Below, piece by piece: positions 2,027 through 47,503 of a DNA stretch of 64,000 nt (position 1 is the stretch's first letter; each line of letters begins with the position of its first letter). The position numbers and the translations under genes are program-made. This DNA comes from Escherichia phage Sa157lw, in sequence record OK322699.1. One strand, given 5' to 3'. The notes beneath the pieces are model-generated. The model did not search any database. It was not told the origin of the DNA and saw only the letters and a list, made by a program, of their open reading frames with translations.

Positions 2027-3349
2027 ATGACTAAGAAACTTGTAACCGAAGAAATGCGCAAACAGTGGCTGCCAGTTCTCCAAAAAGAATCTGAAGCCAT
2101 CCAACCTCTGTCTGCCGAAAACGTAACCATCCGTCTGATGCAAAACCAGGCCGAGTGGAACGCTAAAAACCTGGGCGAATCCGACGCTCCTGGTTCTGTA
2201 AACAGCACTGTCGGTAAATGGCAGCCAGTCCTGATCGACATGGCAAAACGTCTAGCGCCGATCAACATCGCAATGGACTTCTTCGGCGTTCAGCCGCTGT
2301 CTGGTCCTGATGGTCAGATCTTCGCACTGCGTGCTCGCCAAGGTGTTGGTGACGGTTCTACTACCGCTCAGGCGCGTAAAGAACTGTTCATGAACGAAGC
2401 CGATTCCGGCTACTCTGGTGATGGCACTGTACAGGCTGGTGACCCGTCAGGCTTCAGTCAGGCTGAGATCGAAGGTTCCGGCTCTGTCGTGACCACTATC
2501 GGTAAAGGTATGCCGTCAACCGACGCGGAACTGCTGGGTACTACCACCAATCCGTGGGCGCGTGTTGGTATTACCGTTCAGAAAGCGACCGTTACTGCCA
2601 AGTCTCGCGGCCTGTATGCTGATTACAGCCATGAACTGCGTCAGGATATGATGGCAATTCACGGCGAAGACGTGGACAATATCCTGTCTGACGTGATGGT
2701 AACTGAAATTCAGGCGGAAATGAACCGTGAATTCATCCGCACCATGAACTTCAGTGCTGTTCGTTTCAAAAAATTCGGCACCAACGGTGTTGTTGATATC
2801 GCACAGGACATCTCCGGTCGTTGGGCGCTGGAAAAATGGAAATTCCTGACTTTCATGCTGGAAGTCGAAGCGAATGGTATCGGCGTTGACACCCGTCGTG
2901 GTAAAGGCAACCGTGTTCTGTGTTCTCCGAACGTGGCGTCTGCTCTGGCGATGTCCGGCATGCTGGACTATGCTCCGGTTCTGCAGGAAAACACCAAACT
3001 GGCTGTTGACCCGACTGGTCAGACCTTCGCGGGTGTTCTGTCCAACGGCATGCGCGTCTATGTTGACCCATATGCTGTAGCAGAATATATCACCCTGGCG
3101 TATAAAGGCGCGACCGCGCTGGATGCTGGTATCTTCTTCGCACCGTATGTGCCGCTGGAAATGTACCGTACTCAGGGTGAAACCACCTTCGCTCCGCGTA
3201 TGGCGTTCAAAACCCGTTACGGCATCTGTGCTAACCCGTTCGTTCAGATTCCGGCTAACCAAGACCCGCAGGTTTACGTGACTGCTGACGGTATTGCTCA
3301 AGACAGCAACCCATACTTCCGTAAAGGTCTCATCAAATCTCTGTTCTAA
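2027..3349 (+). CDS. 23: major capsid protein gp23
   Basis: 440 aa; motifs FGVQPLSGPDGQIFALRA, YVDPYA, FKTRYGI, C-terminal YFRKG match T4 gp23 pattern. Confidence 0.9.
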   Translation: MTKKLVTEEMRKQWLPVLQKESEAIQPLSAENVTIRLMQNQAEWNAKNLGESDAPGSVNSTVGKWQPVLIDMAKRLAPINIAMDFFGVQPLSGPDGQIFALRARQGVGDGSTTAQARKELFMNEADSGYSGDGTVQAGDPSGFSQAEIEGSGSVVTTIGKGMPSTDAELLGTTTNPWARVGITVQKATVTAKSRGLYADYSHELRQDMMAIHGEDVDNILSDVMVTEIQAEMNREFIRTMNFSAVRFKKFGTNGVVDIAQDISGRWALEKWKFLTFMLEVEANGIGVDTRRGKGNRVLCSPNVASALAMSGMLDYAPVLQENTKLAVDPTGQTFAGVLSNGMRVYVDPYAVAEYITLAYKGATALDAGIFFAPYVPLEMYRTQGETTFAPRMAFKTRYGICANPFVQIPANQDPQVYVTADGIAQDSNPYFRKGLIKSLF

Positions 3350-24294: not shown

Positions 24295-24582
24295 ATGACA
24301 AAGGAACAAGAACTCGCTTTGTTCTCTATGGTTCGCAGTAATGTTAAATTGAGTTTTAGACAAGTGGACTCCATTATTGATCTTATGAAAATTAAGAATT
24401 CCATAGATAACGATCATTTGCGCACCGCTCTTTTGGGATTGTTGGAATTCGTTTTGCGCGGATCTGATCTTGGACCAGTGAATGATATTGACGACCTGAC
24501 CAAATTGTTAAACACTGGCGGTGATGGTTTCGATACCGCTCGTATTCTGATTAACTGTGGTCCTAACAAAGAAGAGGTATGA
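24295..24582 (+). CDS. hypothetical small protein
   Basis: 95 aa ORF. Confidence 0.35.
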   Translation: MTKEQELALFSMVRSNVKLSFRQVDSIIDLMKIKNSIDNDHLRTALLGLLEFVLRGSDLGPVNDIDDLTKLLNTGGDGFDTARILINCGPNKEEV

Positions 24583-24583
24583 T

Positions 24584-24742
24584 GTGGACAAAGATTTGGT
24601 TTGGGAAATCGTGAAAGGTATCCTGGTAATAATTGCTGTGGTCTTTATCCTAGGAGGAAACTTCTTCTATTGGTTATTGCGGTATGAAGAGAAGCGTCGA
24701 GAGCGGAAAGAACAGAAGAGAAAAGATCGATGGATGAACTAA
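24584..24742 (+). CDS. small membrane protein (possible GTG start)
   Basis: ORF 24557..24742; hydrophobic helix ILVIIAVVFILGG then basic tail; start ambiguous. Confidence 0.25.
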   Translation: MDKDLVWEIVKGILVIIAVVFILGGNFFYWLLRYEEKRRERKEQKRKDRWMN

Positions 24743-24774: not shown

Positions 24775-25224
24775 ATGTTCCTTACATCCTTTATTGACTG
24801 GATGAATATCATAAATGGCCTGAGGATCCCTGTTGGGAACCTCGGGCTTTCTCGTTCTTCTATGCCGCAAATCGATGCCGACAAACAAGAAGATTTTCAC
24901 AAATATCTTGAAGACAACGGCGTGTCTATAGATGCTGCGCAAGTGCCCATCAAAATGCTTCGTCTTACCCAGAACGAAATCAACAAGATGAAGGTCTGGA
25001 AGATTATGAAGCAAATCCGAAATAAGAAACCTATGGGTCGAGTTTGGGTGTCTTCTGACAATTACGTTGTTGACGGATCTCACCGATTTGTCGCTGCGTT
25101 GAACATGGACGGCAAACAGCGCATGAAGGTCTACAAAGTTGATTTGCCAGCGATGGAATTTGTTAAACTCGCTAAACAGTTTCAAGGGGTGCGATACAGA
25201 ACGGTCAGCGATACCCGTTTCTGA
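24775..25224 (+). CDS. ParB/Srx-like nuclease domain protein
   Basis: 149 aa; VVDGSHRFVAA resembles the DGxHR core of ParB N-terminal/sulfiredoxin fold. Confidence 0.45.
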   Translation: MFLTSFIDWMNIINGLRIPVGNLGLSRSSMPQIDADKQEDFHKYLEDNGVSIDAAQVPIKMLRLTQNEINKMKVWKIMKQIRNKKPMGRVWVSSDNYVVDGSHRFVAALNMDGKQRMKVYKVDLPAMEFVKLAKQFQGVRYRTVSDTRF

Positions 25225-25303: not shown

Positions 25304-25993
25304 ATGAAACGTTTAATCCTCGGGGTTGTGCTGGCAGGTCTGGCATTACCCGCCGCCGCCAAGCTGAACTCCACAGGTGACAAACTGTGGTCTGATCTTT
25401 CCTACTGTGCTGGGTTCTCCCAGGCCGTGGCTATAGACAAGTCCGGTTCCATAGAGAATTTCGCTGAACTTTGGAACACGGGTAACGTCTCCACTGCTGT
25501 TGTTAATGCTGGGATTGAGTTCAACCGTTACAAACAGGGAGCCTACAACTTGAAAGGCTACCTGAATGACGATGAATTTAACCGAGGAGGCATGGAGGCT
25601 GGCGATCTCATCATGACTGGCCGTATGGGCACACAAGGCCGTATGACTGTAAGGCAATGCCGTTCTCTCCCCTCTCCGGCATTACAGAAGGGTGTGCAAA
25701 TCGGGCGTCGACATTTGGATCTGATCAATGATGGCAACCAATGCATCAAGGTGTTTGAATATAGTGCCGACCAAGAATCAGATCGACGTTTGAAAAAGGA
25801 ATGGCGGACACGTGCCCTTGGATTGAGAGCATGGCTCGTAGAAAACGATTATTACTACGAGGATCGTGTTCAGAACGGATTGAAAGATCTTTCCACTAAT
25901 TTGTCTGTCAATCTAGACGACCCAAGGCTTTCGCGTGAACTCAAGCAAACACGGATTGACTGCGACAATATGATGAAGGAGAACGAAAGATGA
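25304..25993 (+). CDS. secreted (signal peptide) protein
   Basis: ORF 25139..25993 trimmed to MKRLILGVVLAGLALPAAA with AAGGAG RBS. Confidence 0.5.
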   Translation: MKRLILGVVLAGLALPAAAKLNSTGDKLWSDLSYCAGFSQAVAIDKSGSIENFAELWNTGNVSTAVVNAGIEFNRYKQGAYNLKGYLNDDEFNRGGMEAGDLIMTGRMGTQGRMTVRQCRSLPSPALQKGVQIGRRHLDLINDGNQCIKVFEYSADQESDRRLKKEWRTRALGLRAWLVENDYYYEDRVQNGLKDLSTNLSVNLDDPRLSRELKQTRIDCDNMMKENER

Positions 25994-26310
25994 GAAACAT
26001 AATATTCTTGTTATTCTTTTCTATGTTGGCATCATTCCAAGTTATGGCGACTCCGGCCAGCAAATTGAATATTTGCGCGGCCTGGTTGTCTACTTATCAA
26101 CAATTTCACCCTGATGATAAAGATACATCTATCCTTTTATCGGATTATGAAGGTGAGTTGAAACGCCTTGATCTCTACAGCGTGGATCAAATAGAGAATG
26201 CTTTAGATTTGCCAATGATGGAGTCCGCTGCCGACAATAGCAAACAGACGATCAAAGATCTGACTATGTGTCGGGAAATAGCCACTAATTTCGTTGGAAA
26301 TCAAAGATAA
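25990..26310 (+). CDS. secreted (signal peptide) protein
   Basis: MRNIIFLLFFSMLASFQVMA signal-like N-terminus; ATGA-coupled to upstream gene. Confidence 0.45.
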   Translation: MRNIIFLLFFSMLASFQVMATPASKLNICAAWLSTYQQFHPDDKDTSILLSDYEGELKRLDLYSVDQIENALDLPMMESAADNSKQTIKDLTMCREIATNFVGNQR

Positions 26311-27167: not shown

Positions 27168-27180
27168 TTCAATAACATTA

Positions 27181-27210
27181 GGGCGGTTATTATTAAACCG
27201 CCTTTTATTT
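27181..27210 (+). terminator. stem-loop GGGCGGTT attatta AACCGCC + TTTTATTT
   Basis: inverted repeat. Confidence 0.55.
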
Positions 27211-27224
27211 GAGAGATCTATATT

Positions 27225-27893
27225 ATGAATAAGAAGAGTCGTATCATCATCGGCGCGGATCAGGGAAATCTGTATTTTGATACAACTGGTGCTATTGCCC
27301 ACGCCATCCTTCCAACAGGTATTTCTGTTTATTGTGTCGAACACCCAGATCCAGCGATCAAACGACTTTGTTACATCCATCGTGAAAAGGGATTGATTGT
27401 ATTACCGGAAGGCGCAATTATGCGCGCTCGTTCTTGGCCGATCGATTTTAATTCCATGACCGCCAGAGAGATTGACGCCCGTTTCTTCGCATACAATATG
27501 AATCGAACTTTAAGGAACGAAACTCAAAGAGTTGCCCATTTCGATAATGAAACATATACCGTGACATTAGAATTTCGCGTTCTTGGTGAAGCTCTTCAGG
27601 TAAAGAAAACGAGTTGGGCAACCGAAGGGACGTTTACCAATGATTATGCTCTTATCGATAGATTGTGTAATCGGTTCCGAATTAGCCTGACTGCGAATGA
27701 AGATTTGGGAGAATATGTATCATGGACAGCTCGTTCTCCACATATGAATGGGATCATGATGGAGAGCGGGACTCGTAATCGTGCTGTTCTTCAGCTGCTG
27801 TTGTTAGATGCGTATTCTCGCAATCCTCTGGAATATTTGTCTCGAGAGCAAATCGACAACGCTCTTTCCCATTGCAATCATCTGGAGGTGTGA
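27225..27893 (+). CDS. hypothetical protein
   Basis: 222 aa; start carries GAGAGATCTATATTATG element. Confidence 0.45.
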   Translation: MNKKSRIIIGADQGNLYFDTTGAIAHAILPTGISVYCVEHPDPAIKRLCYIHREKGLIVLPEGAIMRARSWPIDFNSMTAREIDARFFAYNMNRTLRNETQRVAHFDNETYTVTLEFRVLGEALQVKKTSWATEGTFTNDYALIDRLCNRFRISLTANEDLGEYVSWTARSPHMNGIMMESGTRNRAVLQLLLLDAYSRNPLEYLSREQIDNALSHCNHLEV

Positions 27894-27894
27894 T

Positions 27895-28182
27895 ATGTCC
27901 GGCGTATGGTGTGATGTATTATTAGTGAGATTTTCAAACGGGATGGATAACCAGATTATTTCATTCTTTTATCCTGTTCCCTTTTCTTCTATGGGTCTGA
28001 CTGTCAAGCGCGTTCTTGACATAGAAGAAAAACTCAACGCTATGCCGTATATGGCGCGACCACACGTGCTGGGTTGTGAACTGTTAAACGAAATGATGAT
28101 CGATGAGAATCTTGTTGAAACAATTATCACGCGTGAACAGATGAAAACTATACTGGCTCAGGGAGAACCCCATGTCGAATAA
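27895..28182 (+). CDS. hypothetical small protein
   Basis: ORF 27808..28182 trimmed to MSGVW behind GGAGG RBS. Confidence 0.35.
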   Translation: MSGVWCDVLLVRFSNGMDNQIISFFYPVPFSSMGLTVKRVLDIEEKLNAMPYMARPHVLGCELLNEMMIDENLVETIITREQMKTILAQGEPHVE

Positions 28183-28492
28183 ACCGTTTGAACTTAAATT
28201 TCGCGTTTGGCATATTCCCCAGGTTCCTGGGATCGCTTTTCATGTTGAGGTTCCAACATTTGAAGAAGCGCAGCGCCTGAAGAATGCTCTGGGTGATTAT
28301 GATTTGTTCCAGTTCAACAACAATATCAAGCCGGATTATTGCAATGCTTCGGGCATTCAGATTTATCAACATGATCTGACCGATGATGATCTTAATGATA
28401 TGGGTCTGGATGATCGTTGGGTTGATATGGAAGATGTTGACGAACTCAACGATTATTTCGAGCATCTGCGCAGTACAGGGTGGGAAATATGA
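28172..28492 (+). CDS. hypothetical acidic protein
   Basis: 106 aa, overlaps neighbours (operon-like). Confidence 0.4.
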   Translation: MSNKPFELKFRVWHIPQVPGIAFHVEVPTFEEAQRLKNALGDYDLFQFNNNIKPDYCNASGIQIYQHDLTDDDLNDMGLDDRWVDMEDVDELNDYFEHLRSTGWEI

Positions 28493-28797
28493 TTTCAAAA
28501 TATATTGTAAAGCCTGGGGATACTCTGTCCAGCATCGCTCTAAAATTATATGGTGATGCCCAACAGTATATCAAATTAGCCAGATTCAACAATATCCAAA
28601 ACCCAGGCCATATCACGGTTGGTCAGGTTATTTGTTTACCCACACCTGTCGAAGACAAAGAACACATTATGATTCCGGTTCAACCGACTCAGAAGTGTTT
28701 GGATGCGATAGCTGGTTTATTTCGGCCAGGTTTTTGTGATGGAACTATTGAACGTCACATTTATCAAGCGATTGTGGAAAACGCAGGTGTAAAATGA
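28489..28797 (+). CDS. LysM domain protein
   Basis: YIVKPGDTLSSIALKLYGD..QYIKLARFNNI..ITVGQVICLP is a canonical LysM. Confidence 0.55.
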   Translation: MISKYIVKPGDTLSSIALKLYGDAQQYIKLARFNNIQNPGHITVGQVICLPTPVEDKEHIMIPVQPTQKCLDAIAGLFRPGFCDGTIERHIYQAIVENAGVK

Positions 28798-29003
28798 TCG
28801 GATTAATTCGTTACCTGTTCATATTCGTAATTTCAACATTCATTTTATTTTTCTTTTTCAAATACTTGAAAGAGACTAAAATCTACCGAAGTAAACGTTG
28901 GCGCAAACGGGTGAGGGTAACTTTCCTGCTGCTGATTTCTTCGGTTACAATAACCGCACTCACATTGGGTGCATATATCTACATTTTTGAAGGGGTACAT
29001 TGA
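28794..29003 (+). CDS. small two-TM membrane protein (holin-like topology)
   Basis: 69 aa; two hydrophobic helices separated by basic loop; ATGA-coupled. Confidence 0.4.
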   Translation: MIGLIRYLFIFVISTFILFFFFKYLKETKIYRSKRWRKRVRVTFLLLISSVTITALTLGAYIYIFEGVH

Positions 29004-29794
29004 TGTTCAAGAAATTGGTGTTCGGTGCAATTATGGTTCTGGCTGCAAGTCTACTTTCTGGTTGTGGTGGCGTTATCGATGAAGGTAATGTCGGCGTTCG
29101 CACCCAATGGGGTGAAGTAGACATGAACCCTGTAACAGCGGGGATCTACACCAGCTTTGTTTCAAGCGTGGATGTTTACACGACCAAAGAAGCCGTTGTG
29201 AGTCTGACTAAAATGACGCCAAAGGCCAAAGACAACCTGACTCTGGAAGACTTGGATGTGGATGTTTATTACACACCCAATGTCGCAAAGGTTCCGTGGT
29301 TCCATACCAAATTTGCTGGCCAGAGCGCTGAACTCGATGATGGCACGATAGCGGTGGGTTTCAATCTAGTTAAAACTGCTGCAGCATCTTCTTCGATGGA
29401 CGCCGTTTCTTCTCTTGATTCTATGACAATTCACACCCAACGTGCTGAATTAGAGAAGATGATTAAAGACCGCACTCAGCAACAATTAGAGACTGCTGCG
29501 CCTGGCATGTTCACAATCACACGCGTGTTGGTCAAAAAGGCGCTGACGGATCCTTCTATTGAGCAGTCTATCCGTGATAATGTTATGGCGGACAAACGAT
29601 TGGATACGGCAAGAAAGAACGTTGAAATTCGCGAGCAAGAAGCCCAAGCGAACCAGAAACTGACCACTTCGCTGACGCCTGAATATCTTCAACATGAATA
29701 TAACATGGTATTACAATCATGTGCCAATAGTGGAAAATGTACTCTGATCGTTGACGGATCCGGCTCAGGTAAAATGCTGAACGTCGGCAAATAA
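29000..29794 (+). CDS. SPFH/band-7 (prohibitin-like) domain lipoprotein
   Basis: signal + lipobox LLSGC; GNVGVRTQWGEV start typical of SPFH. Confidence 0.5.
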   Translation: MMFKKLVFGAIMVLAASLLSGCGGVIDEGNVGVRTQWGEVDMNPVTAGIYTSFVSSVDVYTTKEAVVSLTKMTPKAKDNLTLEDLDVDVYYTPNVAKVPWFHTKFAGQSAELDDGTIAVGFNLVKTAAASSSMDAVSSLDSMTIHTQRAELEKMIKDRTQQQLETAAPGMFTITRVLVKKALTDPSIEQSIRDNVMADKRLDTARKNVEIREQEAQANQKLTTSLTPEYLQHEYNMVLQSCANSGKCTLIVDGSGSGKMLNVGK

Positions 29795-29877: not shown

Positions 29878-30156
29878 ATGAACCGTACTGATTTTATCGC
29901 TCACATCGCCCAGACTCAGGGTATGACCAAAGGCGAAGCAGAGAAGATCGTGGCATCCTTTATCAATGGCGTAAAAACTGCAGTCGCAGCTGGCCAATCT
30001 GTCCAATTCGTCGGCTTCGGCGCGTTTGAAGTTAAACATCAGGAAGCGCGCACTGGTCGCAACCCGCTGAACGGGCAAGCGATTCAGATCGAAGCGAAAA
30101 ATGTTGTTAAATTCAAAGTCGGCGAAGGTCTGAAAGCTGCTGCCAACGGCCAGTAA
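29878..30156 (+). CDS. HU/IHF-family DNA-binding protein
   Basis: ORF 29842..30156 trimmed to MNRTDF (GGAG RBS); FxGFGxFEV..R.GRNP..G..I arm motifs of HU. Confidence 0.8.
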   Translation: MNRTDFIAHIAQTQGMTKGEAEKIVASFINGVKTAVAAGQSVQFVGFGAFEVKHQEARTGRNPLNGQAIQIEAKNVVKFKVGEGLKAAANGQ

Positions 30157-30204: not shown

Positions 30205-30234
30205 AAAGCCGAGGTTAATGCCTCGGCTTTTTCG
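30205..30234 (+). terminator. rho-independent terminator AAAGCCGAGG ttaatg CCTCGGCTTT + TT
   Basis: 10-bp stem and T-run. Confidence 0.75.
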
Positions 30235-46639: not shown

Positions 46640-46708
46640 TCAACACTAAATCCTCAAGTTCGACTTTCACTTTAAATACCTTCGCATACATTGCGGAGGT
46701 ATTTTCTT

Positions 46709-47503
46709 ATGGCCATTCTAAAACTTGGCAACCGAGGTTCTGAAGTCAAAGCGCTTCAACAAAGCCTCAACAAAATCGGTTTCTCCCTTACAGCCGATGG
46801 CATATTTGGTAAGGCAACAGAGAATGCTGTCAAATCCGTTCAGGCAGGTGCTGGATTGGTGATTGATGGTATTGCAGGTCCAAAAACCTTCTATGCTATC
46901 CGTAATGCCGGAGACGCTCATCAGGAACATCTTACCGAAGCCGACTTAGTTGACGCAGCGCGTGAACTTGGTGTCGAACTGGCCAGCATGAAAGCTGTTA
47001 ACCAGGTCGAATCTCGGGGAACGGGTTTCACCAAAACAGGTAAGATCAAAACTCTGTTCGAGCGCCACATCATGTATAAGAAAGTGGCGGCTAAATTCGG
47101 ACAAGCAAGAGCCAATGCTCTGTACCAACTCTACCCAACATTGGTTAACCCCAATTCTGGTGGCTATATCGGCGGAGACGCGGAGTTGGAACGCCTTCAG
47201 GGTGCAATCGCCCTTGATGAGGACTGCGCGTACGAGAGTGCGTCCTACGGCTTATTCCAGATCATGGGGTTCAATTGCCAGATATGTGGTTATCCGAACG
47301 CCAAAGAAATGTTCACAGATTTTCTGACTGGTGAACGTGCACATCTTCTGGCATTTGTGAAATTCATCAAAGCTGACGCCAATATGTGGAAAGCATTGAA
47401 GAACAAAAATTGGGCTGAATTCGCCCGTCGGTACAATGGTCCAGCATATGCCAAGAACCAGTATGACACCAAACTAGCGGCGGCATACAAGAGTTTCTGT
47501 TAA
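46709..47503 (+). CDS. endolysin: N-terminal peptidoglycan-binding domain + N-acetylmuramidase-like domain
   Basis: ORF 46691..47503 (TTG) trimmed to ATG behind GGAGG; PG_binding_1-like LKLGNRGSEVKALQ..DGIFG; C-terminal FQIMGFN and WAEFARRYNGPAY. Confidence 0.7.
   Translation: MAILKLGNRGSEVKALQQSLNKIGFSLTADGIFGKATENAVKSVQAGAGLVIDGIAGPKTFYAIRNAGDAHQEHLTEADLVDAARELGVELASMKAVNQVESRGTGFTKTGKIKTLFERHIMYKKVAAKFGQARANALYQLYPTLVNPNSGGYIGGDAELERLQGAIALDEDCAYESASYGLFQIMGFNCQICGYPNAKEMFTDFLTGERAHLLAFVKFIKADANMWKALKNKNWAEFARRYNGPAYAKNQYDTKLAAAYKSFC

Follow-up and report, generated by a model that had tools for sequence, protein, structure and literature searches.

SPFH proteins are, to our knowledge, universal membrane scaffolds whose clients are mostly unknown. 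Erlin, prohibitin, stomatin, HflK/HflC and QmcA form membrane-bound rings or cages, and QmcA faces the cytoplasm. In the SPFH-NfeD pairs (Escherichia coli QmcA-YbbJ, PDB 8z5g; archaeal stomatin and the 1510-N protease) the SPFH gene lies obligately beside a gene for a small membrane protein. SPFH proteins of phages were already catalogued in 2006 (PMC1524935), and SPFH folds from many phages and giant viruses are present in BFVD. The present study concerns a pair of genes, E and F, in a 64,000-nucleotide stretch of DNA from Escherichia phage Sa157lw (sequence record OK322699.1), referred to here as the window, in which F encodes an SPFH lipoprotein and E, as in the SPFH-NfeD pairs, a small membrane protein with two transmembrane (TM) segments. 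The comparisons described below point to the E-F pair as the conserved unit, one that has stayed together in many unrelated phages. The definition of the two-TM partner is new, and no description of it was found in the literature searched, which is not proof of novelty; the phage SPFH lipoprotein itself was already known. A preliminary description of the region had implied that such a protein had not been seen before in phages. Besides the 2006 catalogue, several records annotate the protein of the genus Kuttervirus as SPFH or lipoprotein, and mass spectrometry of virion preparations of phage Sajous1 yielded three spectra of it (PMC10892097).

The window belongs to Kuttervirus (Ackermannviridae; Vi01-, CBA120- and Det7-like phages) and is 99.8% identical to Salmonella phage Mooltan. 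Gene F (29003–29794, plus strand) encodes 263 residues; its start is most likely the ATG at 29003, which is also the one annotated in Mooltan. The reading frame of 264 residues from 29000 proposed in the preliminary description is real, with the difference that 29000 is an in-frame TTG one codon upstream. The assignment of F as an SPFH/band-7 lipoprotein is borne out by a Band_7 match (PF01145; E 3.2e-13, 50.5 bits against a curated cut-off of 23.6) over residues 25–217 and by a signal peptide with the lipobox Leu18-Ser19-Gly20-Cys21, the first β-strand beginning at residue 22. The lipobox is the membrane anchor of F and takes the place of the TM helix or hairpin that is usual in SPFH proteins. 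Homologues of F fall into 60 clusters with identities down to 34%, and all of them match PF01145 except for one truncated protein. A profile of the family retrieved 127 matches at E ≤1e-30 and 2397 at E ≤1e-3 from 1.84 billion representative sequences, so F represents a small SPFH subfamily. A lipobox is present in 54 of its 68 full-length representatives.

The AlphaFold2 (AF2) model of F, built from a 48-sequence alignment, has a predicted local distance difference test score (pLDDT) of 89.2. It comprises a signal helix, an SPFH core (residues 22–182), two helices (residues 184–223 and 226–242) and a flexible, strand-prone C-terminal tail. In a Foldseek search the model matched erlin, prohibitin, stomatin, HflK/C and QmcA over the full length, with E values of 1e-12 to 1e-8. 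On the basis of the model, F can be described with confidence as an SPFH protomer of the cage type, complete in length and most similar to prohibitin, HflK/C and erlin. A sequence search of the PDB with F gave no match. A pair of conserved cysteines near the C terminus, Cys240 and Cys246, suggests a periplasmic disulfide. The FliL rings of flagellar stators differ from F in having only the FliL core domain and their own TM helix, and F has no flagellar context.

In E. coli, HflK and HflC are a pair of SPFH proteins with N-terminal TM helices, whereas F is the product of a single gene, is anchored through a lipobox, is shorter and shares only 13–19% identity with them; moreover, its separate partner E is not an SPFH protein. 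These differences bear on the proposal that F is an HflK/C mimic that captures or modulates host FtsH, or another quality-control client, and so stabilizes short-lived membrane proteins of the phage or the host. HflK/C cages enclose FtsH (PDB 7wi3 and 9cz2, both among the Foldseek matches), and one T4-like contig that carries the module has a Bax1-I/YccA-like gene 3 kb away, YccA being a substrate and modulator of FtsH. On the other hand, F has no match to the NCBIfam HflK/HflC models at E ≤0.01, it lacks both a paired SPFH gene and a TM helix, and no FtsH-related gene was found to be consistently linked to it among the neighbour families of the phage and bacterial loci. The divergence is also too great for sites of FtsH contact to be inferred, and we regard this proposal as improbable.

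Gene E (28794–29003, plus strand; phrog_11680, function unknown) overlaps the start of F in the sequence TGATG, and the two genes lie in different reading frames. Two hydrophobic segments at residues ∼4–22 and ∼42–60 confirm the description of its 69-residue product as a two-TM protein. The loop between these segments carries 10 Lys or Arg residues and is followed, after the second segment, by a tail of only 7 residues. In 30 such partner proteins, Lys and Arg together number 16 in the N-terminal regions, 143 in the loops and 8 in the C-terminal tails, a distribution that puts the loop on the cytoplasmic side of the membrane and the two ends outside. The predicted topology is therefore N-out/C-out, opposite to that of the class II holins.

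The label “holin-like” given to E in the preliminary description is not sustained by these properties. E resembles class II holins and pinholins in being small and having two TM segments but differs from them in topology, in the charge of the inter-TM loop and in having no endolysin gene nearby; neither the charged cytoplasmic C-terminal tail nor the N-in/C-in arrangement of class II holins is found in E. No holin family matched E in searches of Pfam and PHROG with 30 members of the E family. Among the 25 Pfam families listed for these members, the sole holin entry is Phage_holin_3_3, for one member at E 0.03, and the four PHROG families matched are all of unknown function. The obligate partnership with the SPFH gene, seen across phages of many types, and the replication and RNA-repair genes in the neighbourhood likewise speak against the label.

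The association of E with F was examined in 40 phage loci, comprising the window, three loci from a protein look-up and 36 of 48 loci from IMG/VR, with identities ranging from ∼25% to 100%. The SPFH gene has a lipobox in 34 of these loci, and in 32 of the 34 it is directly preceded by an open reading frame (ORF) for a two-TM protein of 55–73 residues with a basic loop, the end of which lies between −4 and +28 nucleotides from the SPFH start. The two lipobox-type loci with no partner look like a truncated remnant and a frameshift. Only 7 of the 253 other genes in these loci (2.8%) have a two-TM gene upstream by the same definition, and the six TM-anchored phage homologues (loci L041 and L051–L055) have no two-TM partner. 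A scan with a profile from a 12-sequence alignment gave 39 chromosomal relatives in proteobacteria (34–41% identity), most of which are TM-anchored and without a partner; neighbour clustering in these 39 loci gave no conserved partner or operon. A few bacterial relatives of the lipobox type do have a partner. The identity between E proteins rises with that between the corresponding F proteins, from 0.22 to 0.42 (Spearman 0.23), a co-divergence that is weak and that vertical co-inheritance would explain equally well.

The partner gene is often left unannotated and was missed, for example, in Erwinia phage phiEa2809 and in the gene calls of a T4-like metagenomic contig (L006). In phiEa2809 (L095, 2842–3497; compare L017, 3338–3998) the unannotated partner has 64 residues, and further unannotated ORFs of 86 residues (with a C-terminal TM segment) and 69 residues lie upstream of the SPFH gene. 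In the Erwinia phages phiEa2809 and Bue1, E-F follows genes for two secreted proteins and precedes a gene for a 269-residue protein and a homologue of P22 gp17. In the T4-like contigs (L006, 3862–5813, and L007) the two-TM/SPFH module comes directly after rIIA-rIIB; the two-TM ORF of L006 (4831–5004) is uncalled in the source annotation, and the Bax1-I/YccA-like gene of this contig (PF01027; 8578–9270) is located 3 kb downstream of the module.

A second clade of lipid-anchored phage SPFH proteins, which shares a PHROG with F (phrog_200; E 4e-59 and 6e-61), comprises 141 phage records that include Pseudomonas phages KPP10 and PAK_P3, Vibrio phage KVP40, T5-like phages of Aeromonas and Vibrio, jumbo phages of Erwinia and Pseudomonas, and an Alteromonas phage. 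Its representatives PAK_P3 gp041/KPP10 ORF38, KVP40.0339, gp132 of Erwinia phage Joad and gp020 of AhSzw-1 (Demerecviridae) are all uncharacterized. They share with F the lipobox, the Band_7 domain and an adjacent two-TM gene but have only ∼17% identity with it; an hhalign comparison of A1 with KPP10 ORF38 gave a probability of 97%. All six members sampled (KPP10, Joad, KVP40, AhSzw-1, PT11-V22 and Vibrio X1) adjoin a two-TM gene, upstream or downstream of the SPFH gene depending on the phage. These partners are longer than E (116–129 residues) and have two TM segments and a hydrophilic tail of 50–65 residues, whose neutral to acidic character fits a periplasmic location.

The TM helices and soluble tail of the long partners resemble the layout of NfeD proteins, whereas E has essentially no soluble domain. 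An NfeD-like identity of the SPFH partner was considered and rejected because there was no match to the NfeD profile (PF01957) in E, in the 30 E-family members or in the six long-tailed partners. F also differs from QmcA in being exported.

The genes that surround the pair were compared in 27 non-redundant loci. The commonest neighbours encode RNase_T-type exonucleases, RNA ligases, DNA polymerases and phosphoesterases, and rIIB is a neighbour in 2 of the 27. No lysis family occurs among the 25 most frequent Pfam or PHROG neighbour families. The linkage to an endolysin expected for a holin is likewise absent: in the window the candidate endolysin gene is 17 kb away, and the neighbours of the module in the 27 loci are replication genes. 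Genes for RNA ligase, RtcB and RNase_T recur beside phage SPFH modules (L005, 3454–5780; KPP10, L096, 24134–26940; AhSzw-1, L100; and L021). In the host of PAK_P3, expression of the gene PAK_4493 (SPFH/Band 7), listed just before the RtcB gene PAK_4494, goes up on infection from an average of 15 reads to 6009 (PMC4933390). An association between SPFH proteins and RNA repair is possible.

Expression data are available for the second-clade phage PAK_P3. In KPP10 and PAK_P3, holin-like and Rz-like genes lie directly beside the endolysin gene, and RNA sequencing of PAK_P3 infection shows that the endolysin gene and these neighbours are late, with log2 fold changes of 3.3–5.8 (PMC4933390, S5 table). 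In the same data the SPFH lipoprotein gene gp041 has 18–39 thousand normalized reads at 3.5 min and 13–27 thousand at 13 min, 10–20 times those of its neighbours, and is classed as unchanged (PMC4933390). The homologous gene pair of PAK_P3 is thus not late. As the SPFH homologue is expressed early and in a sustained manner, control of lysis timing is the least favoured of the functions proposed earlier for the region.

These results can be set against the view that E-F serves in lysis, either with E as the missing Kuttervirus holin or pinholin and F as its regulator or with the pair, F in the outer and E in the inner membrane, as a non-canonical spanin. A place for such components exists, in that CBA120, ViI and AG3 have no identified holin (PMC3184105, PMC3121705), and the Ackermannviridae, including the Kutterviruses, are on a published list of spanin-less phages (Kongari 2018, PMC6139136); that paper also counts 31 genomes whose lipoprotein genes have no linked i-spanin. 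E has the size and the two TM segments of a holin, and F has features that are often found in spanins, including the lipobox, an extended helical region and a pair of cysteines near the C terminus. The preliminary description was correct in stating that the genes are distant from the endolysin gene and are not a standard holin-endolysin pair, as is also apparent from the topology of E and the lack of a holin family match. Because the lysis genes of Kutterviruses are scattered, this distance is in itself weak evidence against a lytic function. Other objections are that other Ackermannviridae, equally without holin and spanin, do not have E-F, and that the lysis genes of KPP10 and PAK_P3 are late and beside the endolysin gene, whereas the SPFH gene is early and sustained. 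In common with the Rz/Rz1 spanins, F has a lipid anchor, helical regions and periplasmic cysteines, but a type II i-spanin whose coiled coil lies in the periplasm is missing from E-F: E, a hairpin, exposes almost nothing on the periplasmic side that could bind F and lacks a charged C-terminal tail, and F has a 243-residue SPFH fold, which is a ring-former and not a fusogen. A lytic role is consequently judged to be very unlikely.

A further possibility is superinfection exclusion or envelope defence, in which E-F made early in infection would block the delivery of DNA by later phages or give resistance to lysis from without. The exclusion proteins Imm and Sp of T4 and Llp of T5 are small inner-membrane proteins and/or lipoproteins encoded by early, non-essential accessory genes, a description that E-F resembles, although there is no similarity in sequence or profile. 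The abundant expression of the PAK_P3 homologue from early in infection onwards, the combination of an envelope lipoprotein with a small inner-membrane protein and the accessory distribution of the pair within the Ackermannviridae are in keeping with this possibility. So are the position of the pair near gene C, a member of a family linked to exclusion conflicts, and the response resembling lysis inhibition that CBA120 shows at high multiplicity of infection (PMC3184105). However, searches of Pfam, PHROG and PADLOC gave no similarity to known exclusion proteins, and an SPFH ring covers only small patches of membrane. The module is found in phages with very different receptors and hosts, which disfavours masking of a receptor; T5 Llp, a small lipoprotein, acts by blocking a receptor, whereas the 243-residue SPFH scaffold F occurs in phages with unrelated receptors. 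On balance, exclusion is unlikely to be the function, though it comes next after the purpose that we take as the default.

That default is general scaffolding or protection of the membrane, which is ranked first, followed by exclusion, FtsH mimicry and lysis. The model that we favour, at roughly even odds of being correct, is that E-F is an early-made, periplasm-facing SPFH envelope scaffold complex and not a holin/endolysin device. According to this model, F would be exported and lipid-modified at Cys21, with the SPFH domain directly following the lipid anchor, and its long coiled-coil helix and strand-prone C-terminal segment give it the architecture of SPFH proteins that form rings or cages. 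E would fold as a hairpin of two helices, the basic loop lying in the cytoplasm and the two ends at the periplasmic face, and we infer that it supplies the transmembrane component that the lipid-anchored F lacks. The two proteins may assemble on the inner membrane, facing the periplasm, and fence off a client membrane protein or a patch of the membrane. If it behaves like the PAK_P3 homologue, the complex would be produced early, in bulk and throughout infection, a pattern that suggests a role in conditioning or protecting the envelope rather than in executing lysis.

Several points weigh against this model. The most serious concerns the predicted sorting of the lipoprotein. In enterobacteria a residue other than Asp at position +2 directs a lipoprotein to the outer membrane. 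In the F family the lipidated Cys is followed by Gly, Thr or Ser and hardly ever by Asp, so that F would be predicted to be in the outer membrane, apart from E in the inner membrane. The Fisher p value for the pairing in the phage loci (2.9e-33) overstates independence and is only indicative, since the loci are phylogenetically related, and a few bacterial relatives of the lipobox type have no partner. In PAK_P3 the mRNA of the partner is ∼15-fold below that of the SPFH gene (PMC4933390), which disfavours a simple 1:1 complex in that phage, and the early timing proposed for Kuttervirus is transferred from a homologue with only ∼17% identity. The role of the phage SPFH lipoprotein has been called unclear in a 2026 paper (PMC13239085).

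The Gly, Thr and Ser residues at position +2 are also the basis of another arrangement, in which F in the outer membrane and E in the inner membrane would constitute a trans-envelope device that gives the “holin-less, spanin-less” Kutterviruses their missing step of lysis control or outer-membrane disruption. This arrangement is considered highly improbable. If it were correct, the device would be a non-canonical spanin or a system of lysis inhibition with an SPFH scaffold as its base, and no earlier SPFH assembly would be known from the inner leaflet of an outer membrane.

In the window, E and F are the fifth and sixth of six closely spaced genes on the plus strand, A–F, all of which were found on direct reading of the DNA at the positions originally given for them. 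The transcription unit A-B-C-D-E-F-HU is enclosed by two terminator-like hairpins. The upstream one, with a T run (27180–27204, plus strand), coincides with a terminator annotated in Mooltan, as does the downstream one (30205–30230), which was called on the minus strand in the scan and has a T run after the hairpin on the plus strand also. The last gene of the unit (29878–30156, plus strand) encodes an HU/IHF-like DNA-binding protein (PF00216, E 1.6e-29), and the genes around A–F encode a Rad3-like helicase, RNase H, a gp55-like sigma factor and gp46/47 homologues, proteins of replication and recombination. The overlapping stops and starts described previously are present at B/C (11 nucleotides), C/D and D/E (ATGA in both cases) and E/F, but A and B are separated by a 1-nucleotide gap. 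A purine-rich run resembling a Shine-Dalgarno sequence precedes every start from A to F and is weak for A. Overlaps of this kind are common across the genome, including the neighbouring operons, and the coupling of A–F is therefore real yet not unusual. The region matches 164 phage records, nearly all from Kuttervirus, so the six are not chance ORFs. Two records under the names “Enterococcus phage Efm 3-10” (7.9 kb) and “Pseudomonas phage Pa-sanjiao” (158 kb) equal the Kuttervirus records in identity and score and are probably mislabelled or contaminated. A scan of the window for sigma-70 promoters gave a signal that did not exceed that of shuffled sequences, and the T4 late motif TATAAATA is not enriched and does not occur near the six genes; neither is informative, and expression timing is thus not readable from the sequence.

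Gene A (27225–27893, plus strand; 222 residues) matches only phrog_5426 and no Pfam family. Its homologues in a search of 5.8 billion proteins are confined to Kuttervirus, making the family too shallow for a useful model. Gene B (27895–28182, plus strand) encodes a 95-residue DUF7425 protein (PF24200, E 1.2e-51), and gene C (28172–28492, plus strand) a 106-residue homologue of P22 gp17 (PF17420 GP17, 174.2 bits against a cut-off of 25; phrog_1510), for which a PDB sequence search gave only noise. The family of C carries the label “superinfection exclusion”, and P22 gp17 has been described as countering a prophage exclusion system (PMC9409062). The products of A, B, C and D have no hydrophobic segment of the grade of an export signal (maximum 19-residue hydropathy ≤1.25), and those of A, B and C are predicted to be cytoplasmic.

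Gene D (28489–28797, plus strand; 102 residues) has an N-terminal LysM domain (E 1.1e-11, 44.9 bits against a curated cut-off of 20.9), and no catalytic domain was found in it, in agreement with the preliminary description. It matches LysM entries in the PDB with E values down to 5e-10, and its AF2 model has the β-α-α-β arrangement (strand 2–6, helices 13–21 and 24–33, strand 47–54) with pLDDT ∼85 for the LysM part. The C-terminal half (IPVxPTQKCLDAIAGLF..GFCDGxIER) is modelled with low confidence (pLDDT ∼50) but is conserved above the level of the LysM part and contains two invariant cysteines. A homologue search gave only three clusters, and neither D nor these has a hydrophobic N terminus that would provide a signal-peptide route to the peptidoglycan. 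The best NCBIfam match is to a YgaU/Kbp-type model (E 1e-07, 32.4 bits against a cut-off of 134) and covers the LysM region only, and matches below cut-off in the LysM region of D are all that PADLOC and NCBIfam scans of the six proteins returned. Kbp is a cytoplasmic protein. The RefSeq label “endolysin” for D, which was taken from the name of a PHROG, is misleading, as D has neither a catalytic domain nor an export signal.

The distribution of D differs from that of E-F. DNA of D at ≥95% identity is present in ∼49 records, compared with ∼165 that have a full-length F. In one Kuttervirus locus (L011) D is absent and the stop of the gp17 gene overlaps the start of E, whereas another Ackermannviridae contig (L103) has the order A-like, B, C, D (3001–3315), HU, helicase with no E-F. 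At the E-F locus of phiEa2809 and Bue1, A, B and D are absent. From these patterns D and E-F were gained or lost independently, and D is an accessory indel that travels with the gp17 gene, C. Genes A and B lie outside the E-F module.

The preliminary description had combined all six coupled genes into one envelope cassette, with a LysM protein binding peptidoglycan beside the two-TM and SPFH proteins. The single transcription unit between two hairpins and the overlapping or abutting stops and starts are compatible with such a cassette. It is contradicted by four of the six products lacking an export signal, by the many Kutterviruses, most of the genus, that keep E-F without D, by the presence of D without E-F in L103 and by the absence of A, B and D from the vicinity of any other E-F module. 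In an Erwinia relative, E-F occupies a different place in the operon, apart from C. The presence and absence patterns largely refute the six-gene cassette, and we give it almost no credence. The region is best explained as an early/middle operon assembled as a mosaic from accessory genes, with E-F as the only unit that has an envelope function.

Other genes of the window have been or could be related to lysis. The candidate endolysin gene (46691–47503, plus strand), named “canonical endolysin” in Mooltan, stands alone between terminators with no TM-protein gene beside it. Two overlapping genes for signal-peptide proteins (25304–25993 and 25990–26310, plus strand) lie closer to E-F; phrog_3843 and some records give the second the label “Rz-like spanin”. 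This label looks wrong and was rejected: the signal peptide of the protein is cleavable, there is no lipobox but just a conserved Cys in a C(A/L)AWL motif, and the curators of the near-identical Mooltan annotated no spanin. A canonical holin next to a spanin pair is accordingly not what is found here, E itself having no holin match. In an Erwinia relative (L017, 2548–3341), homologues of these two genes occur in the same gene run as E-F, upstream of the pair and separated from it by two small ORFs. A 61-residue ORF (24557–24742, plus strand) just upstream of a gene for a 149-residue protein (24775–25224) and the two secreted-protein genes has one TM segment (residues 14–32) and a very basic C-terminal tail (RYEEKRRERKEQKRKDRWMN). 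It may be described, by shape only, as holin-like or antiholin-like, in a group of phages with no identified holin.

The present results show that a version of the SPFH proteins with a lipid anchor is found in phages from at least six unrelated lineages and that E-F is a defined two-component unit, with a dedicated two-helix partner that is absent from the TM-anchored relatives. Two misleading public labels are corrected, “endolysin” for the LysM gene D and “Rz-like spanin” for the nearby secreted protein, and the long search for the holin and spanin of the Ackermannviridae has one candidate fewer. If E-F does control host membrane proteostasis or the exclusion of other phages, it would represent a new class of early host-takeover device.

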